From Candidatus Rokuibacteriota bacterium (GTDB lineage: Bacteria > JAUVQV01 > DATDCY01): a DNA stretch of 64,000 nucleotides. Made by a program: the position numbers and the translations under genes. The stretch is from positions 723 to 64,722 of the forward strand of contig JANOHV010000262.1 in NCBI GenBank assembly GCA_031406795.1, written 5' to 3'. A model generated the notes under the pieces. The model searched no databases and was not told the DNA's origin. It saw only the letters and a list, made by a program, of their open reading frames with translations. Below, in pieces: positions 25,367-63,990 of the stretch; positions within the stretch are counted from its first letter, which is position 1; each line of letters begins with the position of its first letter.

Positions 25367-25429
25367 ATGCGCAAGGTCAAGTACGTGAAGCCCGGCGTGG
25401 TGGGCGGCTCCAGCGTTCACCCCTGCTGA
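25367..25429 (+). CDS. tiny 20-aa ORF MRKVKYVKPGVVGGSSVHPC with near-consensus Shine-Dalgarno
   Basis: AAGGAGG sits 7 nt upstream of the ATG, which is unusual strength for this genome. It lies about 100 nt upstream of a four-gene coupled operon. Below the ORF-track length cutoff. Confidence 0.35.
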   Translation: MRKVKYVKPGVVGGSSVHPC

Positions 25430-25532
25430 GCCTGGTTTCGGTCGCGTTTTCCGGGCCGGCCCCCCGCGGTGTGCCGGCTCGTCTCACCTCATGAATTCTT
25501 CCGAGGCCCTCTCGGATGCGGAGGGCGCCATC

Positions 25533-26135
25533 GTGTCTCGTCTTCTGCGCCTCGTCGCCTCGCTCTGTTTCGGCGTCGTCGCGGTCGCGCTGTGTGCCGG
25601 CGGCAGCCTGGCGCACGGCGGTCCGCCGCTGCGTATCGGGGTGACGCCGGACCCCGTCGTTTCAGCCGTGGCTAGGCTCGCCCTGGTGCACCTGCGCGAG
25701 GGAGTCGGGTTCGCGGTCGACTGGCGCGAGTTCCCCGACGAAGCCGCGCTGCGGGCAGCTTTTGCCGGCGGCAAGCTCGACATCGCCGTCGCGCTGGCGG
25801 AGCCCGCACCTCCTGCACAGCCGCAGCCGGCAGCCGATTGCCCGCGCGAGACGCTTGCCGCTCTGGGCGAAGGCCTGGGCCGGCGCTGGGGCGGCGAGGC
25901 GTTTCTTCTCGGGTTCTCCGTCGGCCCGTCGGTCTGCGCCCGGCCGGCGCTGATCGTCTCTCGCGCCGTGTTGGAGGACCTGCGCTTCGGCATCCTCCGG
26001 AAAGAGAGCGGGAGGATGGCGGCGCTCATCACGCGGGAGGACGTCGCCGCGGTCCGGGCCGCGGCCGGGAGCGGCGGCGAAAGAACGGCCACGGCTGCCG
26101 CGCGCGCGGCGCTGGCGACGAAGCCGAAACCGTGA
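25533..26135 (+). CDS. secreted substrate-binding-like protein (hypothetical)
   Basis: Track ORF 25491-26135. ATG 25491 is preceded by CACCTC (the anti-SD sequence), whereas in-frame GTG 25533 is preceded by GGAGGG 7 nt upstream. Signal peptide LLRLVASLCFGVVAVALCAGG. LRIGVTPDPV..GFAVDWREFPDEAALRAAFAGGKLDIAV resembles periplasmic binding proteins. Confidence 0.5.
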   Translation: MSRLLRLVASLCFGVVAVALCAGGSLAHGGPPLRIGVTPDPVVSAVARLALVHLREGVGFAVDWREFPDEAALRAAFAGGKLDIAVALAEPAPPAQPQPAADCPRETLAALGEGLGRRWGGEAFLLGFSVGPSVCARPALIVSRAVLEDLRFGILRKESGRMAALITREDVAAVRAAAGSGGERTATAAARAALATKPKP

Positions 26136-27088
26136 AGATCCTCTGTCCGGTCGACTCGGCCGCCGAGGCCGAGACGCTCGCGGGGCTCGGCGCCGACGAA
26201 CTTTACGGCGGCTACCTGCCGGCTCAGTGGACGGAGCGGTTCGCCCTTGCGGCACCGCCGAACCGGCGAACCTTCGCCGAGGCTCAGATCAGCGACGCCG
26301 GGGAGCTGCGTGCGGTCGTCGCGGCCGCGCACGCCGGCGGGGCGGAGTTCTTTCTGACGGTCAACAGCCCGTTCTACGCGAGCGGGCAATATCCGGCGCT
26401 GCTGGCGCTGGCCGAGGAGGCTCTGGCCGCCGGGACCGACGCCTTCATCGCCGCCGACCCCGGATTCATCCTCGCGGCCCGGGCTCGCTGGCCGGGGGTG
26501 CGCATTCACCTCTCGACGCTCGCCGACGCTGCCAACAGCGGCGCGGCGGCGTTCTGGGGCCGGCTCGGCGTGGAGCGCATCACCCTGCCGCGGCATCTGA
26601 CGCTGGCCGCGACCGCCGCGCTTCTTGCCGCGAGCCCCGGCCGGCGTTTCGACGCTTTTGTGCTGTATGGGCAGTGCCCGAACGACGAGGGGCAGTGCAC
26701 CTTCTCGCACGATCACCCTGGCCGCGTCTGGCCTTGCGTCCAGCCGTACACGGCGACCCCGCTGCCGGACACCCCCCGGGCGCGCCGGGCGGCGGCCGCG
26801 CACGCCGGCTGGGCGGGCCTCTCCCGCGCCGACGCCTGCGGGCTCTGCGCGCTCTGGGATCTGGAGCGCCTCGGCGTCGAGGCCGCGAAGATCGTCGGCC
26901 GTGGGACGCCGACCGGGCGCAAGGCCTGGGCGGTGACCACGGTCAAGGAGTTGCTCGGAATTATCGCCGCCGGCTGCGGCCGCGAGGAGTTCCGCGCCGA
27001 GGCGCGGCGGCGCTCGCACGGTCGTTTCGCGCACCGGTGCGATCCGCGGCTCTGCTACGTACCGGAACTGATCCCGGTCGAGGGGTGA
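26132..27088 (+). CDS. peptidase U32 family protein (UbiU/RlhA/PrtC-like)
   Basis: In-frame part of track ORF 25838-27088. GTG 26132 overlaps the upstream TGA. N-terminal KILCPVDSAAEAETLAGLGADELYGG matches the U32 N-terminal block. Cys cluster QCPNDEGQCTFS, plus CGLCALWD. Confidence 0.7.
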   Translation: MKILCPVDSAAEAETLAGLGADELYGGYLPAQWTERFALAAPPNRRTFAEAQISDAGELRAVVAAAHAGGAEFFLTVNSPFYASGQYPALLALAEEALAAGTDAFIAADPGFILAARARWPGVRIHLSTLADAANSGAAAFWGRLGVERITLPRHLTLAATAALLAASPGRRFDAFVLYGQCPNDEGQCTFSHDHPGRVWPCVQPYTATPLPDTPRARRAAAAHAGWAGLSRADACGLCALWDLERLGVEAAKIVGRGTPTGRKAWAVTTVKELLGIIAAGCGREEFRAEARRRSHGRFAHRCDPRLCYVPELIPVEG

Positions 27089-27876: not shown

Positions 27877-28811
27877 TGAATCTCGACTGGAGTCGTTTCT
27901 GGCTCGTCCTGCTTGATGAGGCCACCCGGATGTGGTGGGTCTTCGGCCTCGGCGTGCTCGTGGCCGCGCTGATCAAGACTTTCAAGTGGGACAAGAAGAT
28001 CCGCAAGCGGCTCAAGGGGAGCCGGCACGGGGCGATTGCGCTGGCGACCGGCGTCGGCCTCGTCTCGCCGCTCTGCTCCTGCGGCATCGTGCCGCTCGTG
28101 ATCTCGCTGATCTTCGGCGGCGTCCCGCTCGCGCCGGTCTTCGCGCTGCTGATCACCTCGCCGCTGATGAGCATCGACGCGTTCGTGATCACGCTCGGCG
28201 GCCTCGGCCCGACCCTGGCCTGGGGCAAGCTCGCGAGCGCCGTCTTCGCCGGCCTCGCGGGCGGCTACGCGGTGCTCGGGATGCAGAGGCTCGGGTGGAT
28301 CCGGGAGGAGGGCCTTCTCGGCCGCGAGCGCCCGAACATCCGCGAGAAGTGCCTCGACGACGCCGCGCCCGACGACCCCCGCCGCGGCCTCGAGGTCCCG
28401 GAGCGGCGGCTCTGGTACTTCGGCCTGATGGTCAAGGACATGACCTGGATCATCGGCCGCTTTCTCGTGCCCGCGCTCGTGCTGGAGGCAGCGATCGTCG
28501 CGTTCGTCCCGCTCGGCTGGATGAAGGCGCTGGCCGGTGCGCCCGAGCCGGTCGCGGTGATCGTCGGCGCGTTCGCCGGCATCCCGGTGCCGCTGCCCCA
28601 GATCGCCGCGGTGCCGCTGCTGCGCGGGCTGCGCGAGCTGGGCCTGGGGGACGCCGGGGCGATGGCGCTGCTGGTCTCCGGCCCGGTGACCAGCATCCCG
28701 GCGATCGCGCTGCTCGCGGCGGTCTTCCAGCGCCCGGTGCTCGCGCTGTACGTCACCACCGGACTGACCACCGCCCTTCTCGCAGGTTTCACGATCCTCG
28801 CGCTCGGTTAG
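27876..28811 (+). CDS. permease, ArsP/DUF318 (YraQ-like) family
   Basis: In-frame part of track ORF 27387-28811. ATG 27876 overlaps the upstream TGA (TGATG). About 8 TM helices, and an SPLCSCGIVP motif like the ArsP TPxCSC motif. Confidence 0.75.
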   Translation: MNLDWSRFWLVLLDEATRMWWVFGLGVLVAALIKTFKWDKKIRKRLKGSRHGAIALATGVGLVSPLCSCGIVPLVISLIFGGVPLAPVFALLITSPLMSIDAFVITLGGLGPTLAWGKLASAVFAGLAGGYAVLGMQRLGWIREEGLLGRERPNIREKCLDDAAPDDPRRGLEVPERRLWYFGLMVKDMTWIIGRFLVPALVLEAAIVAFVPLGWMKALAGAPEPVAVIVGAFAGIPVPLPQIAAVPLLRGLRELGLGDAGAMALLVSGPVTSIPAIALLAAVFQRPVLALYVTTGLTTALLAGFTILALG

Positions 28812-29805: not shown

Positions 29806-29905
29806 GTCCCTCCTCGGGGCGCGTTTCTGCTAGATTATAGAGACTTTGCCCGGGGCGAGATAGCGCGAAGGCGCACCGTGCCGGTTGCCGCGCAGGGAGG
29901 GTGAG

Positions 29906-30877
29906 ATGCAGGACGGGGAGGTGTTCGACCGCGGCCGGCTGCGGCTGCAGCCGCTCGCAGAGCGGTCCCACGATCTGGCCGCGGCGGATCTGCAGCCGCT
30001 CGGCTGGGAGGGACCGATTCCCGGCGAACTGCGCGCGCTCTCCCGGCGCATCCTGGCCGCCCGGGACGCGGGCCGCCCCGTGATCCTGATGATTGGCGCC
30101 CACGTGCTGCGCGCCGGGGTGCAGCGCCACCTGATCGATCTGCTCGAGCGCGGGCTGATCACCCTGGTCGCGATGAACGGCGCCGGCGTGATCCACGACT
30201 ACGAGCTCGCCCTCGTCGGGGCCACGACCGAGAGCGTGGCGCGCTACATCGCCACCGGGGAATTCGGTCTCTGGGAGGAGACGGGGCGGATCAACGACAT
30301 CGTGAACGCCGCCCACGCCCGGGGGGGCGCCGGCATGGGCGAGGCGGTTGGCGCGGCGATTCTTGCCGGCGAATTCCCCCACGCCGACATCAGCGTCCTG
30401 GCGGCCTGCCGGCGCCTCGGTGTGCCGGCGACGGTCCACGTCGGCATCGGCTACGATATCATCCACGAGCATCCGAACTTCGACGGCGCGGCCGCCGGCG
30501 CGACCTCCTACCGCGATTTCCTGCGGTTTGCCGCCGAAGTCGAGCGCCTCGAGGGCGGCGTGCTGCTGTGCTTCGGCAGCGCCGTGATGGCGCCCGAGGT
30601 GTTTCTCAAGGCGCTGGCGATGGCACGCAACGTCGCCGCAGGGGAGGGCCGGGTGATCAGCCGGTTCGACGTGCTCGTCGCCGACATCCGGGAGCTGCGC
30701 GGCGATCTTGCCGCGGAGCCCGACCGCGCCGACCCCGCCTATTATTTCCGCCCCTGGAAGACGCTGCTGGCGCGCACCGTGGCCGGGGGCGGCGAGAGCC
30801 GCTACCTGCGGGGCAGGCACGAACAGACGATTCCGGCCCTCTGGCGCGCGCTCGCCGCGGCGGCGCAGGACGCCTGA
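29906..30877 (+). CDS. deoxyhypusine-synthase-like family protein (putative)
   Basis: Track ORF 29885-30877; ATG 29906 follows GGGAGGG. VILMIGAHVLRAGVQRHLIDLLERGLITLVAMNGAGVIHDYELAL and GGVLLCFGSAVMAPEVF resemble the DHS/homospermidine-synthase NAD-binding blocks. This assignment comes from pattern memory only. Confidence 0.4.
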   Translation: MQDGEVFDRGRLRLQPLAERSHDLAAADLQPLGWEGPIPGELRALSRRILAARDAGRPVILMIGAHVLRAGVQRHLIDLLERGLITLVAMNGAGVIHDYELALVGATTESVARYIATGEFGLWEETGRINDIVNAAHARGGAGMGEAVGAAILAGEFPHADISVLAACRRLGVPATVHVGIGYDIIHEHPNFDGAAAGATSYRDFLRFAAEVERLEGGVLLCFGSAVMAPEVFLKALAMARNVAAGEGRVISRFDVLVADIRELRGDLAAEPDRADPAYYFRPWKTLLARTVAGGGESRYLRGRHEQTIPALWRALAAAAQDA

Positions 30878-31365
30878 TGCGCGAGGGCAAGGTCGTGACC
30901 GTCGGGGAGCTCGCGGAGCGGGTGGCCGCGCTTCGCGCCGCCGGCAAGCGCGTGGCGCACTGCCACGGCTGCTTCGACCTCGTGCACCCCGGCCACATCA
31001 AGCACCTGCAGGCCGCCCGCCGGCTCGCGGACGCGCTGGTGGTTACCGTGTCCCCCGACCGCTTCGTCGACAAGGGCCCGGGGCGCCCGGCGTTCCCCGA
31101 GCTGCTGCGCGCCGAGTCGGTCGCCGCGCTGGAGTGCGTGGACTACGCCGCCGTGAACCAGTGGCCCACCGCCGAGGAGACGATCCGCCTGCTACGGCCG
31201 GACTACTACGTCAAGGGGCAGGAGTTCGAGCGCACGGAGGATCGGACCGACAAGCTGCGGCGCGAGGTCGATGCGGTGCGCGAAGTGGGGGGAGAGATGC
31301 GCTTCACGCACGAATTCGTTTCATCATCAACGGCGCTGCTCAAGAAGCATTTCGGCGGTGCGTAG
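30877..31365 (+). CDS. cytidylyltransferase-like nucleotidyltransferase (RfaE domain II / HldE C-terminal-like, HxGH motif intact)
   Basis: In-frame part of track ORF 30568-31365. ATG 30877 overlaps the upstream TGA. Motif HCHGCFDLVHPGHIKHL. Confidence 0.8.
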   Translation: MREGKVVTVGELAERVAALRAAGKRVAHCHGCFDLVHPGHIKHLQAARRLADALVVTVSPDRFVDKGPGRPAFPELLRAESVAALECVDYAAVNQWPTAEETIRLLRPDYYVKGQEFERTEDRTDKLRREVDAVREVGGEMRFTHEFVSSSTALLKKHFGGA

Positions 31366-31393
31366 CAGTTCTTCAAGGAAGGCACGGGAGACC

Positions 31394-32914
31394 ATGGGAT
31401 CGATTCTGACGCTCGCGGAGGCCGGGGCGCGCTGCGCGGCGCACCGGGCCGCCGGCAAGACCGTAGTCCAGAGCCACGGGGTCTTCGACCTGGTGCACCC
31501 GGGGATCGTCCGCCACCTCGAGGGGGCCCGGCGCCAGGGAGACGTCCTCGTCGTGACCGTCGCCGGCGACCGCGCGCTCGCCGAGGGGCCGGTGCGGCCG
31601 ATCTTCCCCGAGCAGCTGCGGGCCGAGAACGCGGCCGCTCTCTCTCCGGTGGACATCGTCTGCATCGTGGACGAGGCGGCCCCCCGCGAGAGCTTGCGCG
31701 TGCTCAAGCCCGACGTCTTCGCCCAGGGTCAGCCCGTGACGAGCGCGGAGCGGCGCATGCACCAGCACCTCTTCGGCGGCTCCGGCACGGGGTTCGAGCT
31801 CGGGGCGACCGGGCTCTACGAGACGCTCGAGCTGATCACGAGCTCGCCGACCCTGCTCGGGACGTTCCTCGACATCTACCCCGACGAGACCCGCGGCTTT
31901 CTCCAGGACTTCTCGCGGCGCCATACCTTCGAGCAGGTGCGCGCGGGCATCGACGCGCTCGGCGAGCTGTCGGTCACGCTGGTCGGCGACACGATCATCG
32001 ACGAGTATCACTACTGCCGGGCGCTCGGCAAGTCCGCGAAGTCGAACCTCGTGGTGAACCAGTACCTCTCGCACGAGGTCTTCGCCGGCGGCGCCCTCGC
32101 GATCGCCAACCATCTCGCCGGCATCTGCCGCGAGGTCCGGCTCGTGACGCTTCTCGGCGACACCGACCCGCGGGAGGAGTTCATCCGCGCGCACCTGCGG
32201 CCGAATGTCGCCCCGGTCTTCTTCCGCCGCCCGGACGGCCCGACGATCGTGAAGAAGCGCTACCTGGACCTTTACCTGAACCAGAAGCTCTTCGAAGTGA
32301 ACTACCTGAAGACCCAGCCGGTCGGCGCGGCGGTCGAAGGGGCGCTGCTCGAGCACCTCACGGCGGCGCTGCCGGCCACCGACCTGGTGCTCGTCTCGGA
32401 CTACGGGCACGGCTTCATCACGGCGCCGGTGATGCGCGCGCTCGAGCGCCAGGCGCCGGCGCTCGCCGTGAACACGCAGAACAACGGCGCGAACGTCGGC
32501 TACAACATGATCACGAAGTACCGGAACCCGACGTTCGTCTGCCTCGACGAGTCCGAGCTGCGGTGGGCCGCCCAGGACAAGGAGGGCCCGATCGAGGAGG
32601 TGCTCGAGCGGATGGCCGCGGCCGTGGGCTGCGACTGCCTGATCACGACGCTCGGCAAGAGCGGCTCGATCGGCGTCAGTCGCGGGGGCGCCGTCAACCG
32701 GACCCCGATCTTCTCGTCCAAGGTGGTCGACACGATCGGCGCCGGGGACGCGTACTTCGCCTTCACGGCGCCGCTCGCGCTGCGCGGCGTCCCGCTCGAC
32801 CTGGTCTCGTTCGTCGGCAACGCCGCCGGGGCGATCGCCGTCAAGATCGTCGGCAACCGCCGCCCGGTCGAGAAGGGCGAGCTGCTCGAGTTCGTCGCGA
32901 CGCTGTTGCGCTAG
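31394..32914 (+). CDS. bifunctional-type protein: N-terminal cytidylyltransferase-like domain (degenerate HxGH) fused to C-terminal PfkB/RfaE-domain-I sugar kinase
   Basis: In-frame part of track ORF 31271-32914; ATG 31394. N-terminal QSHGVFDLVHPGIVRHL. Kinase motifs LVGDTIIDEYHYC and VVDTIGAGDAYFA. Confidence 0.8.
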   Translation: MGSILTLAEAGARCAAHRAAGKTVVQSHGVFDLVHPGIVRHLEGARRQGDVLVVTVAGDRALAEGPVRPIFPEQLRAENAAALSPVDIVCIVDEAAPRESLRVLKPDVFAQGQPVTSAERRMHQHLFGGSGTGFELGATGLYETLELITSSPTLLGTFLDIYPDETRGFLQDFSRRHTFEQVRAGIDALGELSVTLVGDTIIDEYHYCRALGKSAKSNLVVNQYLSHEVFAGGALAIANHLAGICREVRLVTLLGDTDPREEFIRAHLRPNVAPVFFRRPDGPTIVKKRYLDLYLNQKLFEVNYLKTQPVGAAVEGALLEHLTAALPATDLVLVSDYGHGFITAPVMRALERQAPALAVNTQNNGANVGYNMITKYRNPTFVCLDESELRWAAQDKEGPIEEVLERMAAAVGCDCLITTLGKSGSIGVSRGGAVNRTPIFSSKVVDTIGAGDAYFAFTAPLALRGVPLDLVSFVGNAAGAIAVKIVGNRRPVEKGELLEFVATLLR

Positions 32915-54362: not shown

Positions 54363-54472
54363 TGTAACCGCCGCCCCCCGGAGGCGTACTATCTATTGTG
54401 AAATTGACCCGCGGGATTCCGCGGTGGTATGGTGTTTCCGGGGTAGTCAGGCTGGCACGAAAGGAGCAGAGC

Positions 54473-55996
54473 ATGGCGAAGTCAAAATCTCTTGTCTTTT
54501 TAGGCATGTACCTTGTCGTAGCCGCATTCGTCGCCGGACCGGCCCTGGCTCTGTCGTTCACGGACGTGACCAAGGGGTCCGGCGCCGACGACAAGGGGCG
54601 CGGCAAGGGCGTGGCCTTCGCCGACATCGACGGTGACGGCGATTACGACCTCTACGTCTCGAACAAGGGGGGCGCCAACAAGCTCTACCGGAACGACAGC
54701 ACCCCCGGGGACATCAAGTTCACCGACATCACGGCTGCGGTCGGCGACAACCTCGGCGACGTCGGCTTTTCCATGGGTTCCGCCTTCGCCGACGTCGACA
54801 ACGACGGCCGGCCGGACCTGTTCATTGCCAAGGGCGGTCAGGGCGAAGTCGAGGCCAACCGGCTCCTCCGCAACGTGAGCACCCCCGGACGCATCAAGTT
54901 CGTCGACATCTCCGTCGAGGCCGGCGTCAACACGAAGGACTTCACCTATCAGGGCGCTTTCGCGGACTACGACAACGACGGCCGGCTCGACCTGTTCATG
55001 GCGAACTACGGCGTCGGCGTCAAGAACCGCCTCTTTCACAACGACAGCACGTCCGGCCGCGTCAGGTTCACCGAGGTCAGCGCCAAGGCGGGCGTCGGCG
55101 CACCGGGCTGGTCCTGGGCGGCGACCTGGGCCGACGTCGATGGTGACGGCTTCCAGGATCTCTATGTCGTTCGCGGGCGCTATCCGGCCGGCGAGCCGAA
55201 CCTGATGTACCGCAACAACCACGACGGCACGTTCACCGAGATCGGTCGCGAGACCGGCCTGAACGACCCGAACTGGGGTCTCGGCGCCGCGTGGGCCGAC
55301 GTCGACAACGACGGCGATTTCGATCTCTATCTCTCGAACTACGTCGGCGGCAACAAGCTCTTCCTCAACGAGGGCGGCTGGAAGTTCACGGACGCCACGA
55401 AGACCGCGAAGCTCGACTTCCACGGCTGGGGCAAGGGCCCGACCTTCGCAGACGCCGACCACGACGGCGACCTCGACCTTTACGAGGGGGACTGCAAGAT
55501 CGGCAACCAGCTGTACATCAACGACGGCCGTGGGACGTTCGCGAACGTCATCGAGAAATTCCCCTTCATGAAGAACGAGGGCGTCCGCACGAAGGGCACC
55601 GCGTTCACCGATCTCGACAGCGACGGCGACATGGATCTCTTCGTCGTGCAGTGGAACGTGCCGAACAAGATTTACCGCAACGACCAGAACGACAAGGGCT
55701 TTCTCAAGGTGCGTCTCGCCGGGACGATCAGCAACCGGATGGCGATCGGCAGCCTCGCCCGGGTCTATGACGCCGGGTTCGCCGAGGACCAGAAGCACTT
55801 CCGCGGCGTCCGCGAGCTGCGCACGGCCACCGGTTTCTGCGCCCAGGAGGGCCAGGAGCTGCACTTCGGCGTGCCCGCTGCCGGGACCTACGACGTGGTC
55901 GTGAACTTCCCGAGCGGCGTGAAGGTCATCCAGCGCGGCGTGAAGGCCGGCCAGGTCCTGAGGATCGAGGAGCCGAACGCCATCGCCAGCAAGTAG
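54473..55996 (+). CDS. secreted FG-GAP/VCBS repeat protein with C-terminal ASPIC/UnbV domain (CRTAC1-like)
   Basis: Track ORF 54398-55996; ATG 54473 follows AAGGAG. Repeated FADIDGDGDYDLYV, FADVDNDGRPDLFI, WADVDGDGFQDLYV motifs. Confidence 0.8.
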   Translation: MAKSKSLVFLGMYLVVAAFVAGPALALSFTDVTKGSGADDKGRGKGVAFADIDGDGDYDLYVSNKGGANKLYRNDSTPGDIKFTDITAAVGDNLGDVGFSMGSAFADVDNDGRPDLFIAKGGQGEVEANRLLRNVSTPGRIKFVDISVEAGVNTKDFTYQGAFADYDNDGRLDLFMANYGVGVKNRLFHNDSTSGRVRFTEVSAKAGVGAPGWSWAATWADVDGDGFQDLYVVRGRYPAGEPNLMYRNNHDGTFTEIGRETGLNDPNWGLGAAWADVDNDGDFDLYLSNYVGGNKLFLNEGGWKFTDATKTAKLDFHGWGKGPTFADADHDGDLDLYEGDCKIGNQLYINDGRGTFANVIEKFPFMKNEGVRTKGTAFTDLDSDGDMDLFVVQWNVPNKIYRNDQNDKGFLKVRLAGTISNRMAIGSLARVYDAGFAEDQKHFRGVRELRTATGFCAQEGQELHFGVPAAGTYDVVVNFPSGVKVIQRGVKAGQVLRIEEPNAIASK

Positions 55997-56086: not shown

Positions 56087-57166
56087 TTGACGACGCATAT
56101 CCCCGCCAATCCCGCCATCGCAGTTGCCGCGCTCTTTGCCGTCGCTCTCGCCGGCTGCGCCGTGAACCGGCCGCCGGTTGCGAGCACCGTCCCGACCGTT
56201 GGCCTGGTGCAGGTCCGGCTCATGCACCGGGAGCACGCGGTCCCGGGAATCAGGGTGACCGCGGTGCGAAACCTCGGGGTCGCCCTGCTGGAGGAGCGGA
56301 TCGTCGCTGACGCCACCGCGGACGGCCCTGCGCGACTCGGCCTCGCGCCGGGGAGCTGGTATCTCTCGGCGTCGACCGGCGAGCCGGCGCTCTTCGGCTG
56401 GTACGGATCAAATCCCGTCATGGTCCGCGCCGGGGAGACGGTCGAGGTCACTATCCCGGCGGTCCCCGCTCCAGGCGCCATCACGGTGACCTCCGTCTCG
56501 CCGGGAGAGGAAGCGGTCGCGGGAGAGGTCCTTGGCGACACCGGAGCCATCCCCGGAGCCGGGGTGGCATTCTATCTGGACGCGTCGACCCAGTTTCGGG
56601 GGCCGGGTTACATCGAGGCCCGGGCGGACGAGCGCGGTATCTTCGAGACGCGCCTCTCCCCGGGGCGCTACTGGATCTTTGTCCGCCGCCGCTCGAGACC
56701 GCAGGTTTTCGGTCCGCTGGAGGCGGGAGACGACTTCGGCTCCTACCCCGGCAACCCACTCGAGATCCGGGCGGGGGAGCGGGTGGCGATCCGCATCCCG
56801 ACCGTGCGCGTCCTGAAGAAGAGCGGCTGGAGCGCCCCCTCGGCGTTGCGCACCCGCGTCAGCGGCACGATTCGCGACACGGCCGGGCGCCCGCTCCCCG
56901 GGTTCCGCGCCTTTCTCCACGCGAAAACTACGATGCTCGGCAAGCCGGAGTTCGTTTCGGAGCCGAGCGGGGCGGACGGCTCCTACCTGGTCTGGGTCGA
57001 CCGCGAAGGCGTCTATTACCTGGGCGCGCGAGCGGAGATTGGGCGTGCACGCGAGGAGCGCGAGCTGATCGGCCTCTACGCGGGCTCCCCCGACCACGCG
57101 ATCGAGGTGCGGCTGGACGCGGGCGCGCTCCCGGCGATGGACATTGTCGTGGGCGGCGCGCCATGA
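56087..57166 (+). CDS. lipoprotein with three carboxypeptidase-regulatory-like repeats
   Basis: ORF track 359 aa. TTG start after AAGGGGGAG. Lipobox LAGC. Repeats end in SWYLSASTGEP, RYWIFVRRRSRP and VYYLGARAEIGRA. Confidence 0.75.
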   Translation: MTTHIPANPAIAVAALFAVALAGCAVNRPPVASTVPTVGLVQVRLMHREHAVPGIRVTAVRNLGVALLEERIVADATADGPARLGLAPGSWYLSASTGEPALFGWYGSNPVMVRAGETVEVTIPAVPAPGAITVTSVSPGEEAVAGEVLGDTGAIPGAGVAFYLDASTQFRGPGYIEARADERGIFETRLSPGRYWIFVRRRSRPQVFGPLEAGDDFGSYPGNPLEIRAGERVAIRIPTVRVLKKSGWSAPSALRTRVSGTIRDTAGRPLPGFRAFLHAKTTMLGKPEFVSEPSGADGSYLVWVDREGVYYLGARAEIGRAREERELIGLYAGSPDHAIEVRLDAGALPAMDIVVGGAP

Positions 57167-58005
57167 GGTATTTATGGGTGTGCTTTGTCGCGGCCTGCCT
57201 GGCTCCCCTGACGGGGTGTGCTACGAACCAACCGCGTAACGGCTCTGCCCCGGGGGCGATTTGGACTTGGTCGGGCGAGCGCCGGATCGCCAACTACGTC
57301 GAGATCCCCGCCGGCGTCACGCTGCTGATCGCGCCGGGCACTACCCTGCGCTTCGCTTTCATCGACCGCGACGGTGACGGCATCGGAGACGCGGGCCTGC
57401 ACGTGCTCGGTCGCATCGAGGCCGTCGGGACGCCGACCGCACCGATTGTCTTCACCTCGGCGGAGGCCGACCCCCAGCCCGGCGACTGGCAGGGATTGGT
57501 CTTCGACGCATCGAAAGACAATCTCTTCCTGGAGAGCCGTTTCGAGTACGCGCAGCACGCGCTGCACGCGCACTTCTCCTCGGCGCGCCTGGAGCGCTGC
57601 CGGCTCGAACGCAACATCGAGGGAACCCGCCTCGGCAATTCAAGCTTCACGCTCGAGCGCTGCCTCGTGCGCGGCAACATCAGCAAGGGGCTCAATTTCT
57701 TCGGCTGCTCGAACATCATCCGCCGCAACTTGATCACCGGCAACACGGACGGGGTGTTCCTCTTCGAGACCGACACCAACTCGGTCGTCGAGGCCAACAA
57801 CATCGTCGGCAACCTGCGCTTCGACGTGCGTCTCGGCGATTTCTATCGCGGGGGCAAGACCATCGGCGAGAACTGGTTCGGGACCACCGATGTCGCCGCG
57901 ATCCGGGAGCGGGTTTTCGACGGGAAAAACGACCCGGGTCTCGGCCGGCTCGATTTCATCCCCGCGCCGCTGCCCTTCGACACCGGATGGGAGGGCGAAC
58001 CGTGA
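57163..58005 (+). CDS. right-handed parallel beta-helix repeat lipoprotein (NosD-like), paralog of 20357-21208
   Basis: ORF track 280 aa. Lipoprotein signal LTGC. TLRFAFIDRDGDGIGDAGLHV..IVFTSAE is colinear with TVRFAWSDEDGNGIGDGELAV..ITFTSAR in the paralog. Confidence 0.8.
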   Translation: MRYLWVCFVAACLAPLTGCATNQPRNGSAPGAIWTWSGERRIANYVEIPAGVTLLIAPGTTLRFAFIDRDGDGIGDAGLHVLGRIEAVGTPTAPIVFTSAEADPQPGDWQGLVFDASKDNLFLESRFEYAQHALHAHFSSARLERCRLERNIEGTRLGNSSFTLERCLVRGNISKGLNFFGCSNIIRRNLITGNTDGVFLFETDTNSVVEANNIVGNLRFDVRLGDFYRGGKTIGENWFGTTDVAAIRERVFDGKNDPGLGRLDFIPAPLPFDTGWEGEP

Positions 58006-60416
58006 GCACCCCGGCGCTCGCGGGCTGGAACCAGCGACTCGGCGTCGGGCTGCTGATCAGCTCGCTCTGCCTGCTGGCTCTGGAACTGACGCTCTCGCGC
58101 ATCTTCTCGGTGCTGATGTGGTACCACTTCGTCTCGCTCATCGTCTCGCTGGCGCTCTTCGGCATCACGGTCAGCGGGCTGGCGGTCTTTCTCGTCCCTG
58201 AGCGCTTCCCCCGCGAGGCGACGGCCACCTGGATGGGGCGAGCCTCGCTGGCGCTGACCCTCGCGCTGCTCGCGCTCTGGACCTTCTTCCTGCTGCTCGC
58301 CCGCTCGCCGCAGCTGGCCTACCGCATTCTCGCCCCCTTTCACCAACCGCAGTACGAGCCCTTCGGCGCCGACAAGGTCACGCTCCTGGACGGCGGCCAG
58401 ATTCTGCCGCTGGCGGTGCTCTACCTGGTCTCCGCGCTGCCCTTCATTTTCGGCGGGTTCGTCGCGACGCTGGCCCTGACGCGGTATCAGGAACGAGTCG
58501 CGTCGGTGTACGCCTGGGACCTGGTCGGCGCCGGCCTCGGCTGCGTCGCGGCCTTCGCCCTGCTGACCTGGCTCGACCCCTTCGCCACGCTGGCGGCGCT
58601 GGCCGTTTTCGCGGCGCTTGCGGCCTGGGTCTTCTTCCGGGAGAGCGGCGGCCGCGGCGGCGCGCTCGGCGCGCTGGCGCTCGGGGCGCTCTCGCTCGCT
58701 CTCGTCGCGGCGACCGCGAGCGGCGGGATCGTGGAGTTGAAGTTCGTGCGCGGCCGCTATCAGCCGGACCTGCTGCTGACGCGCTGGAACTCCTACTCCC
58801 GGGTCGCGGTCTGGCCGCTGCGCACCGGCCAGGGCGAGGCCTCGTGGGGGATGAGCCGCGGCTACCGCGGACCGATCCCGGAGCAGTACGGTCTGGTGGT
58901 CGACGACACCGGCTACACCACGATCGCGCGCTACCGCCCCGGCGACGACCTGGGCTGGGCCCGCGCGAACCTGCTGTCGCTCCCCTACGCGGTTCGCGAG
59001 GACGCGCGGGCGCTGATCATCGGACCGGGTGGCGGCAAGGACATCCTGATCGCGCTGGCGAGCGGGGCAGCCGCGGTGCGTGCGGTCGAACTCAACCCGC
59101 TGGTCGTGCGCGCCGTCCAGGACGACTTCGGGGACTTTTCCGGCCGCCCGTACACGCTGCCGGGCGTCGAGAAGGTCGTGGACGAGGGGCGCACCTTCCT
59201 CGCGCACGACACCTCGCTCTACGACGTCATCCAGGCCACGGTCGTCTACGGCCGGCTCGCCCCGGCGGCCGGGGCTTTCACGTTCACCGAAGACCACCTC
59301 TACACGACCGAGGCGTTCCAGACCTACCTCGACCGGCTGGCGCCCGGGGGGATGCTGGCCTTCTCGCGCTTCATCTACGAGAAGCGCATCCTGCGGCTGG
59401 TTGCAACGGCGCGGGCGGCGCTCGAGGCGCGCGGTATCGCGGCGGCTCCCGGGTGCATCTTCATCGCGGCCGAGCGCGGCCTGGCCTCGGTGCTCATCAA
59501 GAACGCGCCGTTCACGGCGACGGAGCTTGCGGAGCTGCAGGGCCGCTGTCGCGAGCTGGGCTTCCAGGTGCTCTATGCTCCCGGCGGAGCGGGCGACAGC
59601 GCCATTGCCGACCTGCTGCGCGCGCCGGATCCGGCGGCGTACCTGGCCGCGCTGCCCTTCGACGCCACGCCGGTCGGCGACGACCGGCCGTTCTTCTACT
59701 ACCTGATGCGGCCAGGGGATTTCCTGCGCAGCGGCGCCGCCCGAGCGCCCGATTTCGAGGACCGGGGTCTGCTGCTGATGCGCAATCTGCTCGGCACGGT
59801 GTTTGGCCTGGTCATGCTGTGTATCGCGCTGCCGCTGGCGCGCTACGGTCGCCTGCGAGAGATCCGCTGGGGGCGCGCCTGGGCTGCGGTCGGGTATTTC
59901 GCGGCGATCGGACTGGGGTTCATCGTCGTCGAGATCGGCCTGCTCAAGCGCTTTCTGCTGCTGCTCGGCAAGCCGGCGTACACGCTGGCCGTGACGCTGG
60001 CGATCTTTCTCGCGGCCGGCGCGTTGGGCAGCGCCCGGGCCCGGTTGATGGCGGGAAACGCGCGCCTCGTTCGCCGCAGCTGCGCGCGCCTGACCATCGT
60101 CCTGCTCCTCACGGCCGTTCTGTTGCCGCCGCTGCTCGAGACGCTGCTTGCCGCGCCGCTCTGGGCCCGGCTTGCTGCGACCGTGGCGGTCATGGCGCCG
60201 CTGGGGTACCTCATGGGCCAGCCGTTGCCGGCCGGCCTCTCGCTGCTGCGCCAGCAGCGTCTCGTTCCCTGGGTCTGGAGCATCAACGGGGCGCTCTCGG
60301 TGCTCGGCTCGGTCGGGGCGCTCGTCCTCGCGGTCAACTTCGGCTACACGACGACGATGCTCGTCGGCCCGGCCTGCTACCTCGTCGCCGGCGCCCTCGC
60401 CGAACTGGTCGAATGA
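58002..60416 (+). CDS. spermidine-synthase-like (aminopropyltransferase/methyltransferase fold) domain fused between two polytopic membrane domains
   Basis: In-frame part of track ORF 57987-60416. GTG 58002 overlaps the upstream TGA. About 7 N-terminal and 7 C-terminal TM helices flank ALIIGPGGGKDI..VELNPLVV..GGMLAF (spermine/spermidine synthase-like). Confidence 0.65.
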   Translation: MSTPALAGWNQRLGVGLLISSLCLLALELTLSRIFSVLMWYHFVSLIVSLALFGITVSGLAVFLVPERFPREATATWMGRASLALTLALLALWTFFLLLARSPQLAYRILAPFHQPQYEPFGADKVTLLDGGQILPLAVLYLVSALPFIFGGFVATLALTRYQERVASVYAWDLVGAGLGCVAAFALLTWLDPFATLAALAVFAALAAWVFFRESGGRGGALGALALGALSLALVAATASGGIVELKFVRGRYQPDLLLTRWNSYSRVAVWPLRTGQGEASWGMSRGYRGPIPEQYGLVVDDTGYTTIARYRPGDDLGWARANLLSLPYAVREDARALIIGPGGGKDILIALASGAAAVRAVELNPLVVRAVQDDFGDFSGRPYTLPGVEKVVDEGRTFLAHDTSLYDVIQATVVYGRLAPAAGAFTFTEDHLYTTEAFQTYLDRLAPGGMLAFSRFIYEKRILRLVATARAALEARGIAAAPGCIFIAAERGLASVLIKNAPFTATELAELQGRCRELGFQVLYAPGGAGDSAIADLLRAPDPAAYLAALPFDATPVGDDRPFFYYLMRPGDFLRSGAARAPDFEDRGLLLMRNLLGTVFGLVMLCIALPLARYGRLREIRWGRAWAAVGYFAAIGLGFIVVEIGLLKRFLLLLGKPAYTLAVTLAIFLAAGALGSARARLMAGNARLVRRSCARLTIVLLLTAVLLPPLLETLLAAPLWARLAATVAVMAPLGYLMGQPLPAGLSLLRQQRLVPWVWSINGALSVLGSVGALVLAVNFGYTTTMLVGPACYLVAGALAELVE

Positions 60417-60447
60417 GCCCGGTGATGGAATTCGATTGCGAGAGTCA

Positions 60448-60539
60448 GGCGGAGGGGTGGCGCGGAGGTGTGGTCTCCGTCGGCGGACCGGAGGGAGCAC
60501 GCTGGAGGTCCGCAGCGTCAGGATCCCGGAGCCTGCACG
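60448..60539 (+). repeat. conserved ~93-nt intergenic element, copy B (5' of CarbopepD lipoprotein gene)
   Basis: About 85% identical to 28922-29014. Ends 17 nt before ATG 60557. Confidence 0.6.
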
Positions 60540-60556
60540 AGCCCGGGGGGACAAAG

Positions 60557-61618
60557 ATGAATCGTGCTATCGCGGTGATGGTCTCGATCTTGGTGCTGAC
60601 TGCGTCCGGGTGCGGCGCGCGGCCCGGAAACATCGAGGGGCGCGCTGTGTCGCGCGGGACCGCGGTCGCGGGCGCCACGGTGGAGGTCTATCTCTCCGGC
60701 GGACGCGGCAGGGAGTCCGTTCCCTTTTCCACCGCGTCGACGGCAGCAGACGGTTCGTTCCGGCTGGAGCTTCCCGCCGGGAGTTATTGGGTCTGGGTGA
60801 AAGATCTTGCGAGCACCCAGGGGCCTCGTCGCCTGGCCGAGTACGCTGGCAACCCGGTGAACCTTGCGGCCGGGACGGCACGGCCTCTCGGTGAAATCGA
60901 ACTGCACGCCGTCGGTGCTTCGCGCGAGTCGTCGGCCAGTCCCGGCGCCGGCGTCCGCGGGCGCGTCCTGTACGCCGGCCTCCCCGCCGACGAGACGGCT
61001 GTCATGATCTATGACCCCGCCAGTACCAGGTTGGCCGGCCCCGGTTACGTCGCGCTGGTGCGCACCGATGCGGAAGGTCGCTTTCAGATCGATCTGGCAC
61101 CGGGCCCCTATCGATTCGCTGCTCGCCGGCGTCGCGACGGAGCGACGTCGGGGCACCTGCAGGGAGGTGACCTGAGCGCAACGGCGTCCATGGACCCGAT
61201 CGTCGTCCCCGCGAACGGTTACCTCGACCTTGGCGACCTGCCGCTGCACGAGGTCAACGCCGAGCGGCTGGCTGCGAACGGAGCGCAGAGGCTTCAGGAG
61301 CCGGCGACGACCGTGCTCGAGGGGCGCGTCCTCGATCCCGAGGCCAGGCCGCGCATCGGACAATTCGTGTTCGCCTACCGGGACGAGGGGATGATCGGAA
61401 GGCCCGAGTCGATGGCCCGCACTGGCGTCGACGGCGAGTTCGCACTCTCGCTCCCCGGGGGGGGCAAATACTACCTAGGGGCCCGCAGCCGCCACGGCGG
61501 GCCGCGCCAGCCCGGCGAGTGGGCGGGCAAATTGGCCGGTTCGTCCGACAGCGGTCTGTCCGTGCTCGCCGGCAGACGGGTGAAGGGTTTGACGATCGTC
61601 ATGGAGCAGGTGTGGTAA
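60557..61618 (+). CDS. lipoprotein with three carboxypeptidase-regulatory-like repeats
   Basis: In-frame part of track ORF 58844-61618; ATG 60557. Lipobox TASGCG. Repeats end in SYWVWVKDLAST, PYRFAARRRRDG and KYYLGARSRHGGP. Confidence 0.8.
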   Translation: MNRAIAVMVSILVLTASGCGARPGNIEGRAVSRGTAVAGATVEVYLSGGRGRESVPFSTASTAADGSFRLELPAGSYWVWVKDLASTQGPRRLAEYAGNPVNLAAGTARPLGEIELHAVGASRESSASPGAGVRGRVLYAGLPADETAVMIYDPASTRLAGPGYVALVRTDAEGRFQIDLAPGPYRFAARRRRDGATSGHLQGGDLSATASMDPIVVPANGYLDLGDLPLHEVNAERLAANGAQRLQEPATTVLEGRVLDPEARPRIGQFVFAYRDEGMIGRPESMARTGVDGEFALSLPGGGKYYLGARSRHGGPRQPGEWAGKLAGSSDSGLSVLAGRRVKGLTIVMEQVW

Positions 61619-61688
61619 AGAGCGATTGGGGAGCTTATATTATAAAAGAGCCGGAAAAATCCCGGCGCAGAATTGCTGGAGGGCTTCG

Positions 61689-62312
61689 ATGAAGAGGGTT
61701 CTTCTGACGGTGGTTGCGGCGGGGCTGGTTGCGGCGATGGCGGCGATGAGCTGGCCGGTTGAGGCCTGCGTCGGCAAGACGGTGTTCCTCGGGCGTCTGC
61801 CGGGCCGGGAGCAGGAAATCCTGACGGAGATGTTTTCCTGGATGGTCAGCGAGCGAACCGGGACCACGATCCAGGTCAAGGCGCTGCCGGACAGCCGGGC
61901 GATGCACGCTGCGCTGCAGACCGCCGATGTCGATTTGTACCTCGAGGACCAGAGCCTGGCGTTGCGCGAGTTGCTCGGCCAGCCTGCGAGCGGCACCGTC
62001 ATGGACCAGCGTGAGACGGTCCGCCGGGAATACGAGCAGCGGTTCAACCTCATCTGGCTCGAGCCGTGGGGCATGATCGGGCGGCCCGCACCCGTCGCCG
62101 TGGCGGGACCCGGCGGGCCGGTCGCGCCCGGATTCGTGGCTCCGGTGATCCGTAAAGATACGCTGAAGAAGTTTCCGGCGCTGAGCCGGCTCGTGAACAA
62201 GCTCTCGGGCGTGGTCGACAACGCCACGCTGGCGCGGCTCGTACAGGAGAGCGAGAAGCGGCCGGCACGCGAGGTCGCGAAGCAGTTTCTGAAGGAAAAG
62301 CGGCTGATCTAG
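61689..62312 (+). CDS. periplasmic substrate-binding domain protein (OpuAC/glycine-betaine-binding-like)
   Basis: Track ORF 61626-62312; ATG 61689 follows GGAGGG. Signal peptide. An AT-rich TTATATTATAAAAG box lies 35 nt upstream. Confidence 0.55.
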   Translation: MKRVLLTVVAAGLVAAMAAMSWPVEACVGKTVFLGRLPGREQEILTEMFSWMVSERTGTTIQVKALPDSRAMHAALQTADVDLYLEDQSLALRELLGQPASGTVMDQRETVRREYEQRFNLIWLEPWGMIGRPAPVAVAGPGGPVAPGFVAPVIRKDTLKKFPALSRLVNKLSGVVDNATLARLVQESEKRPAREVAKQFLKEKRLI

Positions 62313-62335
62313 CTGGCTGCGGATTCTGTCACCGC

Positions 62336-63990
62336 GTGTCCAGAATCCTCGTCTTCGTCGCGCTGATTCTCTGCGGGGCCTGCGCAGCTTCGCGGAACCT
62401 GGTCCCGGAGAACGTCGCGTCGCCGGTGACGGTTCAGGGCACGCTCGTTGCCGATGGCGTCTGGAGCGGCACCATTGTCGTTGCCGATGATTTTCAGGTG
62501 CCGCGCGGCCGCACGCTGCGGATTCTCGCCGGGACACGGGTTCTCGTCCGTCCGGCCGACACTACGAAGACCGAGCCGGAATTCCTCGACAACGCCACGG
62601 AGTTCCTGATCCGCGGCCGACTGCTCGTCGAAGGGACCGCGGCTCGTCCGGTGGTCTTCGAGCCTCTCGCCGTCGAGGCGGGAGGGGAGGCAGCGGTCCG
62701 CTGGGGCGGCCTGATTTTCGATGGGGGAGAAGGACAGATTCGCCACGGGCGGCTCTCCGGCGCCGAAACCGGGGTCACGCTGCTTGGTTCATCGCCATCC
62801 ATCGCCGACCTGCTGATCTCCGGTGCTCGCCAGGGCATCGTCGTTCACGCCGGTTCCGCCCCACGCCTGGCACGGGTCACCGTGGCCGCCGAGGATGGCG
62901 GTGTGGCTTGCTGGTCCGGGTCGAGTCCGATTCTGGAATCGGTCACCGTTCATGCCGGCGAACACGAGGGCCTGCTGGTCGCGCCGGGTGCCGCCCCGCA
63001 CATCAAGGGCTCCTCGTTCCGGGGGAAGTCCTTCGACGTTCTCTGGGGCGCGAGCGGCGCTCCGCCGACGGAGCTGACGGGGGCCCGGGTGCTCAGGACG
63101 CGCCCCGCGGTTCATCAACCGGGCGAACGGGAGGGTGGCCGGAGTCAGGACCTCGCCGATGCGGACGGCCCGCTGCTTCCGCCGCCGCTGCCGTTCGCAC
63201 CGCAGGTGCCGCCTCCGGGCGCCGTCCCGACGCGGGTTTACCGCGGCGAGCGCTTCATCGGCGAGGACACGACCTGGGAGGGGGAGATCCTGATCGACGG
63301 CACCGTCATGGTGTCGCCGGTCGCGCGCCTGACGATCGCGCCGGGAACGATTGTCCGGTTCGGCTTCGTCGACACGGACGCCGACGGCGTCGGCGAGAGC
63401 GAACTCTTCATCCAGGGCCGCCTGCTCGCCGAGGGGACGCGCGAGGCGCCGATCGTCTTCACCGCGGTCGACGGCGAGGGACGCGGGCGCTGGGGCGCGA
63501 TCAACCTGATGGGGACCGACGCCGAGGAGAGCCGTCTGGCGTGGTGCCTGGTGGAGAAGGGGTTCCGCGGCCTGCACAGCCACTTTTCGCGCTTTCGCGC
63601 CGAACACTCGATCTTCAGGAACAACTACCGCTCGATCCAGTTTCAGGAGTCGACTGCGGCGATCACGGACTGTGCGGTGACCGGCAGCGCCAGCGCGCTG
63701 CGCTTTCGCGACTCGACCGCCGCGATCGATGGGCTGGTCGTCTTCGGCAACACCCTGGGGATCCAGATCCTGAGATCGTCCTTTTCGCTGGTCGGATCGA
63801 GCCTCATCGGCAATGCGCTCGCCGGGATGCACGTGCGCGAGTCCGAGGGGACGATTGCCGGCAGCCGCTTCGAGTCGAACTCGCCCGGCCTGCGCGTCAG
63901 CGACTGCCGCGTGAGCATCGAAAGCAGCCGGTTCCGGGCGAACAATGGCGCCGGCCTGCAATTGCGCCGCACGCAGGGGCGCGTCGAGGG
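62336..63990 (+). CDS. large right-handed parallel beta-helix repeat protein (NosD-like), 3' partial at window end
   Basis: Not in the ORF track because it runs off the window end. Translation from GTG 62336 gives VSRILVFVALILCGACAAS.. then repeated beta-helix units (TLRILAGTRVLVRPAD; PGTIVRFGFVDTDADGVGESELFIQGRLLAEGTREAPIVFTAVDGEGRGRWGAINLMG; ..SRFESNSPGLRVSDCRVSIESSRFRANNGAGLQL). Colinear with the 20357 and 57163 paralogs. Confidence 0.75.

Follow-up and report, generated by a model that had tools for sequence, protein, structure and literature searches.

An 809-residue membrane protein with a predicted periplasmic, spermidine-synthase-fold domain is the signature component of a conserved envelope operon

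We analyzed a stretch of 64,000 nucleotides (here called the window) from a Candidatus Rokuibacteriota bacterium (GenBank assembly GCA_031406795.1, contig JANOHV010000262.1), concentrating on a row of co-directional genes at 54.4 to 64 kb on the + strand. The genes of this row are close-set or overlapping, with all called genes present, and among them is one for an 809-amino-acid (aa) inner-membrane protein that starts at 57987. A preliminary description of this DNA had begun that gene at 58002, an in-frame GTG five codons further downstream. It had read the row as a second copy of a lipoprotein/beta-helix cassette at 19216 to 22296, with a membrane-embedded, spermidine-synthase-like enzyme inserted that might modify a lipid-linked or periplasm-facing substrate, in a glycan locus with a polyamine theme. 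As a whole, that interpretation was partly supported. The 809-aa protein has the proposed fold, and, as the signature membrane component, it belongs to a conserved envelope operon of 12 to 17 genes; the residues of aminopropyl transfer have been replaced.

As a single query, the 809-aa protein found no match in Pfam, NCBIfam, or the sequences of the PDB, and it did not hit the SpeE model PF01564 even at an E value of 10. A word-indexed search returned 502 homologs of about 800 aa, and an exhaustive search returned 21,338 clusters (50% identity), with matches at E < 1e-30 accounting for 5,490, putting the family count above 5,490. We used an alignment of 21 relatives (A1) and a wider family profile of 132 representatives. 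The AlphaFold2 model built from the 21-sequence alignment (predicted local distance difference test [pLDDT], 82.8; predicted template modeling score [pTM], 0.85) has seven helices (residues 16 to 246), a mixed alpha/beta domain of 345 residues (approximately 250 to 592), and seven more helices (593 to 808), and the count of 7+7 transmembrane (TM) helices was the same by hydropathy. Family profiles reached structures of SpeE, namely, 1inl with the 21-sequence profile (E 1.5e-8) and 1uir with the broader one (E 1.4e-9). PF01564 was reached at E ≤ 1 by 17 of the 21 close relatives (best, 6.5e-7), and its cutoff of 22.9 bits was exceeded by half of 10 wider-family representatives (5/10; 25.2 to 30.8 bits). 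When the central domain was compared with the PDB by Foldseek, the top 50 matches were all spermidine or thermospermine synthases, with E values from 5e-8 and TM-scores on the target of 0.55 to 0.62. AlphaFold2 and hydropathy confirm the 7+7 TM helices, and profiles and Foldseek confirm the spermidine-synthase fold between them, as had been proposed.

The domain shares with SpeE (PF01564; 1inl, 1uir, 3o4f, 2o05) a two-part fold consisting of an N-terminal beta-sheet domain and a Rossmann core, and it shares the glycine-rich loop, the Glu after strand 2, the acid-Gly after strand 3, the flexible lid loop after strand 4, and an LYTxEaF motif. It differs in having an extra beta-alpha subdomain, a DDRPFF motif, the 7+7 TM embedding, and a predicted extracytoplasmic location. 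The speE equivalog models gave the family 17 to 41 bits against cutoffs of 250 to 304. Some relatives are nonetheless named “spermidine synthase” in the databases, and others are named “hypothetical.” Ten longer family members carried no additional Pfam domain. In some relatives of about 1,100 aa (P0200 and P0218), the N terminus is extended by a stretch that has no Pfam match: a signal-anchor comes first, then a domain of some 150 residues that is predicted to lie outside and contains a conserved F-R-W-S/T motif, and then three additional helices.

In human spermidine synthase, Asp173 deprotonates the attacking amine and directly precedes the gatekeeping loop, and Tyr79 helps to position the amine (PMC12812037). 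The 132-sequence profile aligned with Thermus thermophilus SpeE (1uir) without gaps through YDVVIIDLTDP. The equivalent of Asp173, at the end of strand 4, is position 418, which is Ser in 83 and Thr in 30 of the 132 representatives and Ser or Thr in the clade of family members that are accompanied by the cassette (T418 in the window protein). The second Asp of the DxxD motif falls at position 421; it is still Asp in 111/132 of the wider family but is Tyr or Phe in the cassette clade (Y421 in the window protein). The acid of GGG(D/E)G, which binds the aminopropyl amine of decarboxylated S-adenosylmethionine (dcSAM), corresponds to position 349, a Gly in 131/132 and in the clade, so that GGGDG has become GPGGG(K/R)D. 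The equivalent of Tyr79, in the YHE motif, is position 326, which is Lys or Arg in 85/132 and Arg in 20 of the 21 close relatives; A and N follow R326, replacing the H and E of YHE, and position 328, Asp in the wider family, is Asn in the cassette clade. The catalytic residues had been singled out beforehand as the check on the enzyme assignment, and all of them (the GGG(D/E)G acid, both DxxD aspartates, and the Tyr79 equivalent) proved to be replaced.

The part of the site that faces the nucleoside is conserved, and the comparison with SpeE for dcSAM-binding residues came out divided: the acid for the aminopropyl amine is lost (G349), and the acids for ribose and adenine are retained. Position 368 (the ribose Glu after strand 2) is Glu in 124 and Asp in 8 of the 132 representatives, and position 400 (the acid after strand 3, for adenine) is Glu in 94 and Asp in 36, with Gly or Ala at position 401. 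The family also keeps the glycine loop (GPGGGKD in the window protein), R402, D413, Q416, the lid-loop residue E435, and D565. No variation was seen within the clade in the residues of the nucleoside pocket or in the lid loop (P426, G429, A430, and E435), and across the family as a whole no element is better conserved than the DDRPFF motif (565 to 570), which adjoins TM8. Two sequence motifs of class I S-adenosylmethionine (SAM) methyltransferases, a GxGxG loop and an acid after strand 2, are present; matches to Methyltransf_23 were weak and occurred in 3/21 relatives (best E, 0.0012). Judged from these residues, the domain cannot carry out canonical aminopropyl transfer, looks able to hold an adenosyl ligand, and has an acceptor pocket that reads as changed from acidic to neutral or basic. 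Because the acidic and aromatic residues by which SpeE binds and deprotonates the amine have given way to neutral or basic ones, any chemistry here would not be polyamine synthesis, and the acceptor is probably not a cationic amine.

To assess on which side of the membrane this domain lies, we counted Lys plus Arg in short loops, taking the helix boundaries from AlphaFold. In the 21 relatives, the mean was 18.1 on the N-terminal side of the membrane versus 2.8 on the side of the central domain; in the 132 representatives, it was 14.8 versus 1.7, and the bias ran the same way, with the domain side the poorer, in 132/132. The Lys/Arg-rich loops are L2-3, L4-5, and L6-7 in the N-terminal half and L8-9, L10-11, and L12-13 in the C-terminal half (3.3 and 3.1 Lys/Arg for L8-9 and L10-11), so the two halves agree independently. 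TM7 and TM8 are both long and hydrophobic; the uncharged stretch in them averages 21.5 and 26.2 residues, respectively. Since the domain lies on the Lys/Arg-poor side, the positive-inside rule places it in the periplasm, and the predicted topology (N terminus in, central domain out, C terminus in) is likely, though well short of certain. The products of the adjacent genes all have a signal peptide or a lipobox. The earlier idea of a periplasm-facing substrate fits this predicted orientation. The extension of P0200, as read from its sequence, fits a domain-out orientation as well but is not independent evidence for it. A loop between TM3 and TM4 on the predicted periplasmic side (L3-4; residues 107 to 137, nucleotides 58305 to 58397; FHQPFYQPFQQG) is conserved specifically in the clade and is 31 residues long versus a median of 7 in the wider family; it was modeled by AlphaFold with low confidence and is a candidate contact site for partner proteins.

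As a topology control, we used Ralstonia AXW13211.1 and 21 relatives, which are membrane-anchored SpeE proteins with intact GGGDG, YRYHE, and VDFPDP motifs. Proteins of this motif-intact type, about 503 aa long and named “polyamine aminopropyltransferases” (Ralstonia solanacearum megaplasmid, L086:2092-3669; P0267 to P0386), are very common in Betaproteobacteria. The control proteins have six clear helices with a charge pattern like that of the 809-aa family, followed by a seventh hydrophobic segment that is borderline (uncharged over 15 residues in 17/22; best 19-residue hydropathy, 1.73). If this segment does not span the membrane, the catalytic domain of the control would be cytoplasmic and the 809-aa family would have lengthened the segment into a true TM7. 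The resemblance to the PRK03612 type of SpeE (NF002956; R. solanacearum AXW13211.1, 525 aa) extends beyond charge. In both, a multihelix domain with (Y)E(L/I)xLxRxF...GxG precedes the SpeE-like domain; residues 7 to 419 of relative P0174 are colinear with model positions 19 to 414, covering membrane and catalytic parts; and Ralstonia TM2-4 aligns with the C-terminal membrane half of the 809-aa family. The Ralstonia type differs in retaining the three motifs, in lacking a C-terminal membrane module, in the shortness of its seventh hydrophobic segment (15 uncharged residues), and in having no link to the beta-helix/beta-sandwich cassette. NF002956 (522 positions; cutoff, 472 bits) did not match the window protein and was matched by 7/10 wider-family representatives at 17 to 46 bits.

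Modeled alone, the N-terminal membrane half reached a pLDDT of 90.3. Its best Foldseek match in the PDB was not significant (E 0.18), and its top TM-scores (0.40 to 0.44) were to transporters of the MFS, ENT, and NTT types (NorA, ENT1, POT, XylE, and NTT1). Searches of the relatives against Pfam gave no MFS hit and no match for the membrane domain. Conserved polar residues (E33, D178, E649, and N767) occur at either face of the membrane as well as in its middle. We considered an internal duplication of the membrane halves: E-x-x-L-x-R-x-F...G-x-G motifs occur in register in both, but the hhalign probability of a repeat was <1% with both alignments, which leaves the register suggestive only. 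Our working picture is a six-helix module (TM1-6), TM7, the outside domain, TM8, and a second six-helix module (TM9-14). Lnt and the EptA/LtaS-type transferases are polytopic membrane enzymes that place a soluble-enzyme fold on the periplasmic side, with helices that could deliver a membrane-derived donor; the 809-aa protein resembles them in architectural logic only, without a relationship in sequence or fold.

The company that this protein keeps is conserved. The operon is contiguous in Desulfuromonadales. In Geopsychrobacter electrodiphilus, its genes overlap and encode, in order, an ArsP_1 permease, an FG-GAP/ASPIC propeller, a NosD-like beta-helix protein, and an 806-aa homolog of the membrane protein; these are followed by three beta-sandwich genes, each with a beta-helix gene after it (a small DUF3467 gene precedes the last beta-helix gene), and by genes for an OpuAC-like protein, a DUF362 protein, and a polyferredoxin. 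In the Rokubacteria-like window, the same system is split over approximately 10.7 to 22.3, 27.9 to 28.8, and 54.4 to 64 kb (Table 1), and a close relative (86% identity) has the same gene order as the window. A pattern scan of species-representative genomes, with patterns derived from the cassette clade, yielded 80 loci; the nearest were from Rokubacteria (88, 82, and 60% identity), and the others were mostly from Desulfuromonadales, with Deferrisomatales, Gemmatimonadota, Anaerolineae, and others also represented. In tblastn searches of the window proteins against 84 loci, beta-sandwich proteins were found in 70, beta-helix proteins in 66, ArsP in 37, FG-GAP in 34, and OpuAC in 33. By reciprocal mapping, every cassette gene of the window has its own orthologue in the contiguous operon, and the remaining parts of that operon lie elsewhere in the window. 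The product of 57163 to 58005 is the orthologue of the N-terminal part of a Geopsychrobacter NosD-plus-propeller gene. The partner genes resemble NosD/CASH beta-helix proteins and CRTAC1-type propellers through their Pfam NosD/Beta_helix and FG-GAP/ASPIC matches, and PDB sequence searches with the cassette proteins had a sole find, CRTAC1, for the FG-GAP gene. The operon differs from NosD systems in having three to four diverged beta-helix proteins paired with triple beta-sandwich proteins, an arrangement for which we found no precedent in the literature searched.

The change in the active site tracks this operon, in a sample of loci with at least 3 kb of flank that is biased toward the clade from which the scan patterns were taken. 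Where position 421 is Tyr or Phe, mostly as (S/T)(F/Y)GR within 418 to 423, the cassette is present (70/70 loci); where the ancestral (S/T)DTW motif is kept, it is absent (5/5), and in the four of these five loci that were checked by Pfam the neighbors are unrelated genes. The distant members that were checked for the cassette (31 to 35% identity) lack it and have two-component systems, P-type ATPases, and GNAT genes as neighbors. In two loci, an Acetyltransf_6 (GNAT) gene lies directly 5′ of a family member with the ancestral TDTW motif (L079:8772-9953 and L082:8807-9979), overlapping the membrane-protein gene in the former and ending 9 nucleotides before it in the latter. This GNAT gene may be a functional partner for the branch of the family without the cassette.

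The row at 56087 to 62312 and the genes at 19216 to 22296 have matching gene orders, with the 809-aa gene inserted in the former. The three protein pairs are collinear, with a similarity well above chance, and are 31% (E 8e-35), 38% (the beta-helix pair; E 7e-46), and 32% (E 9e-32) identical, and the two kinds of beta-sandwich protein in the cassette are also related to each other. Shared gene order, as the preliminary description had it, is thus confirmed, and the reading as a second copy of a glycan cassette is not: the two loci diverged long ago and are modules of a single operon, whose genes lie together in other phyla, and the cassette appears duplicated because the operon is split in this genome. 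A recent tandem duplication is ruled out, since the window genes correspond one by one to distinct orthologues in the contiguous operon of other genomes. The label “lipoprotein” applies to one of the loci. Lipoboxes are present in the products of 56087 to 57166, 57163 to 58005, and 60557 to 61618; the three proteins of 19216 to 22296 all have signal peptides and none has a lipobox Cys, which makes them exported proteins but not evident lipoproteins. Most beta-sandwich domains at 19216 to 22296, 56087 to 57166, and 60557 to 61618 carry a motif of the type A-R-(K/R/S)-R-x-G-G...G-(D/E)-(F/Y/W)-x-G-Y-x-(P)-G-N-P-V, i.e., a basic patch, a glycine-rich loop, and GNPV, without an obvious metal site made of His, Cys, or Met.

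The polyamine theme had also drawn on a gene described as deoxyhypusine-synthase-like at 29906 to 30877, which we place at 29885 to 30877. It had no hit to PF01916 even at E 10. It is a member of the GSU2086 family (NF052581; E 4e-108; 361.5 bits versus a cutoff of 250); otherwise, it matched ArgZ-like_C_2nd (Rossmann) at E 0.0037, and the PDB sequence search returned only ArgZ-type chains, at E 0.4 to 0.8. In Geobacter sulfurreducens, GSU2086 sits between hldE and gmhA (PMC5585712, transposon sequencing [Tn-seq] table). In the window, 29885 to 32914 contains the GSU2086-family gene, then a gene for a 162-aa cytidylyltransferase-like protein, and then one for a 507-aa protein with CTP_transf_like and PfkB domains, and so reads as an hldE-like heptose block. 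By family and context, we assign the GSU2086-family gene to heptose/lipopolysaccharide (LPS) genes lying between two cassette regions and not to polyamine metabolism. With this identity and context, the deoxyhypusine synthase assignment is unsupported and the polyamine theme falls away.

Table 1. Genes of the operon in the window and parts of the 809-aa protein
Coordinates	Strand	Feature	Evidence
10681-11643	+	DUF362 protein	54% identical to DUF362 of the Geopsychrobacter operon
11713-13254	+	Membrane polyferredoxin (Fer4_5 plus several 4Fe-4S)	43% identical to the Geopsychrobacter operon gene
15883-16644	+	Additional, shorter CarboxypepD_reg/DUF4198 exported protein	
17574-19193	+	Second Fer4_5 polytopic membrane protein, directly 5′ of the first cassette	Homologs near the cassette in 8 loci
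19216-20349	+	Exported three-domain beta-sandwich protein	Orthologue of the third such gene in the contiguous operon
20306-21208	+	Exported beta-helix protein	Orthologue of the last beta-helix gene in the contiguous operon
21205-22296	+	Exported three-domain beta-sandwich protein; start codon approximate	Orthologue of the second such gene in the contiguous operon
27900-28811	+	ArsP_1-family permease, displaced here; heads the operon in 37 other loci	PF03773, E 7e-34
54398-55996	+	FG-GAP/ASPIC-UnbV beta-propeller, exported, CRTAC1-like; heads the second locus	Pfam; PDB 9etn, E 1.9e-15; syntenic in 34 loci
56087-57166	+	Lipoprotein (lipobox LAGC), CarboxypepD_reg; three beta-sandwich (CarboxypepD_reg/transthyretin-like) domains	Pfam; paralogy
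57163-58005	+	Beta-helix lipoprotein (LTGC), NosD/Beta_helix (CASH-like); overlaps both adjacent genes	Pfam; paralogy
57987-60416	+	809-aa inner-membrane protein, signature gene of the operon	Homologs; AlphaFold2 model; Foldseek PDB
58032-58724	+	Residues 16-246 of the 809-aa protein, TM1-TM7: TM1-6 transporter-like module with conserved E33, R38, H47, D178; TM7 leads to the outer face	
58725-59762	+	Residues 247-592: spermidine-synthase-fold domain, predicted periplasmic	
59763-60410	+	Residues 593-808: TM8 back to the cytoplasmic side; TM9-TM14 second module (E649, GMPLPxG, PWxWxxNG)	
60557-61618	+	Lipoprotein, three beta-sandwich domains (CarboxypepD_reg x2, DUF4198)	Pfam; 3′ of the membrane protein in nearly all loci
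61689-62312	+	OpuAC-like binding protein, exported, short (207 aa)	PF04069, 50.7 bits versus cutoff 21.2; syntenic in 33 loci
62336->64000	+	Large beta-helix protein, possible lipoprotein, two NosD/Beta_helix regions; runs past the window end	Pfam; homolog of 617 aa in a related locus (L003)

Several other features of the window were seen around these genes. Of the two Fer4_5 proteins, only the one at 11713 to 13254 is a clear orthologue of the operon polyferredoxin. Between the first cassette and the LPS genes, the − strand carries a class-A-type beta-lactamase-family gene (22318 to 23370) and a gene for a 649-aa polytopic membrane protein (23431 to 25380) that has C-terminal TPR repeats and an N-terminal part not recognized by Pfam. 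Directly 5′ of the ArsP_1 gene lie genes for a 214-aa exported protein (25491 to 26135) and a peptidase-U32 protein (26135 to 27088), followed by a 262-aa open reading frame (ORF; to 27876); neither the 214-aa nor the 262-aa product had a Pfam hit. A 903-aa ORF on the − strand (57843 to 60554) runs opposite the 809-aa gene, and very long antisense ORFs recur throughout the window. Because this ORF is antisense to a gene that has 502 homologs, it is most likely an artifact of high G+C content, and the other long antisense ORFs are probably of the same origin.

We hypothesize, with a probability that we put at roughly 45%, that the 809-aa protein is a periplasm-facing transferase or ligand-handling module that is fed via its own transporter-like domain and serves the envelope operon. 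For catalysis, the donor, the acceptor, and the partner contacts, we infer the following by analogy only. A small donor or substrate, taken from the cytoplasm or the bilayer, would be handed by the membrane domain to its periplasmic counterpart, which would transfer or present it to an envelope substrate held by the beta-helix and beta-sandwich partners; the polyferredoxin and DUF362 proteins may supply reducing power. Several points weigh against this hypothesis. The positive-inside rule is the sole basis for the orientation, and the control is ambiguous on just this point: if segment seven of the motif-intact SpeE proteins does span the membrane, the same rule puts a canonical enzyme outside. 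It is not obvious what donor would be available to an adenosyl-binding fold outside the cytoplasm. The transporter likeness of the membrane domain is weak by structure comparison, by Pfam, and by the search for a repeat. Literature searches on the protein family and the operon found no description and no experiment on any member. Finally, the spermidine-synthase-fold domain could be catalytically dead.

This last point can be made into an alternative of its own, in which the dead domain is the periplasmic ligand-binding or docking part of a transporter or receptor with 12 to 14 TM helices; for instance, it might detect or bind a small molecule for onward transport by the membrane domain, or it might hold exported partners in place. 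The loss of every aminopropyl-transfer residue, together with the clade's loss of D421 (to Y or F) and D328 (to N), speaks for such a pseudoenzyme, as do the transporters among the best, if weak, fold likenesses of the membrane half, the conserved polar residues on both faces and in the middle of the membrane, and the OpuAC-like binding protein that the operon encodes. We nevertheless consider it unlikely, though a reading to be taken seriously: the nucleoside pocket and lid loop are invariant in the clade, a pattern expected more of a functioning active site than of a surface for docking, and the family's most conserved element, DDRPFF, lies next to the membrane. If the domain is active, it might instead face the cytoplasm, as a SAM-dependent methyl or alkyl transferase acting on a membrane-held lipid or lipid-linked intermediate, with the exported neighbors acting later. 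SAM and dcSAM are made only in the cytoplasm, and binding of an adenosyl group is compatible with the glycine loop, E368, and E400. Loss of the GGGDG Asp with gain of K/R351 would favor SAM over dcSAM, by analogy with putrescine N-methyltransferase versus spermidine synthase, and the motif-intact membrane-anchored SpeE proteins have similar loop charges. However, this orientation would leave the Lys/Arg-rich loops of both halves outside, in conflict with a charge bias shared by all 132 representatives, and it does not suit the long hydrophobic TM7 and TM8; both membrane halves point to an outside domain. We therefore regard a cytoplasm-facing transferase as distinctly doubtful.

The neighboring genes suggest a further possibility, namely, that the operon is a periplasmic metal-center or sulfur-handling machine of the NosD/NosL/NosH type, in which NosD-like beta-helix proteins would be scaffolds, NikK/NikL-like beta-sandwich proteins would bind metal, polyferredoxins would provide electrons, and the membrane protein would be an accessory. 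Pfam NosD is matched by all of the beta-helix genes, DUF4198 and, weakly, NikL by the beta-sandwich proteins, and the operon has Fer4_5 polyferredoxins, DUF362, and an ArsP-family permease at its head. These likenesses do not carry far: the beta-helix genes score 19 to 20 bits against the cutoff of 300 of the NosD subfamily model TIGR04247, and NikL scores are 19 to 22 against a cutoff of 100; nosZ, nosF, nosY, and nosL were not found in the window cassette or in the two syntenic loci inspected; and the translations of the beta-sandwich genes, by reading, have almost no conserved His, Cys, or Met. Such a machine is, in our judgment, improbable. The reading toward which the preliminary description leaned, a true spermidine or polyamine synthase bound to the membrane and set in a glycan locus with a polyamine theme, has the fold in its favor, along with the database names of some relatives and the remote colinearity of relatives with PRK03612-type SpeE. 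The replaced catalytic residues refute that identity at the sequence level; scores against SpeE models are 17 to 46 bits where the cutoffs are 250 to 472; no speD/SAM decarboxylase gene was seen in two loci with Pfam-called genes; and the supposed deoxyhypusine-synthase-like gene is a GSU2086-family protein in a heptose context. A spermidine synthase is thus essentially excluded.

Returning to the hypothesis of a periplasm-facing transferase or ligand-handling module, a bolder form of it, which we offer as a long shot, is that the whole membrane-anchored SpeE-like lineage is extracytoplasmic. In that case, an adenosyl-sulfonium donor, either SAM or a derivative of it, would cross the inner membrane through the transporter-like membrane modules and reach the periplasmic Rossmann domain of the same protein, and the clade would have been retooled from amine alkylation to a noncationic envelope substrate held by beta-helix/beta-sandwich pairs. 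If borne out, such an extracytoplasmic SAM-type transferase system might be the first one known from bacteria, since the literature searched contained nothing on periplasmic methyltransferases.

At the level of catalytic residues, the name “spermidine synthase” is wrong for this clade, and thousands of database proteins share its architecture. Known chemistry with SAM or dcSAM would call for the domain to lie on the opposite side of the membrane from the one where it probably sits; should the orientation be correct, one has to ask how a fold that binds adenosyl ligands could be supplied beyond the cytoplasm. For the window itself, a false polyamine link is removed from the annotation, and three separate regions of the 64 kb become one system. 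The operon, with its remodeled active site, is conserved from Desulfuromonadales to Rokubacteria and Gemmatimonadota and represents an uncharacterized envelope machine, for which the cultured Geopsychrobacter, Geoalkalibacter, and Geothermobacter that carry it offer a genetically tractable entry point.

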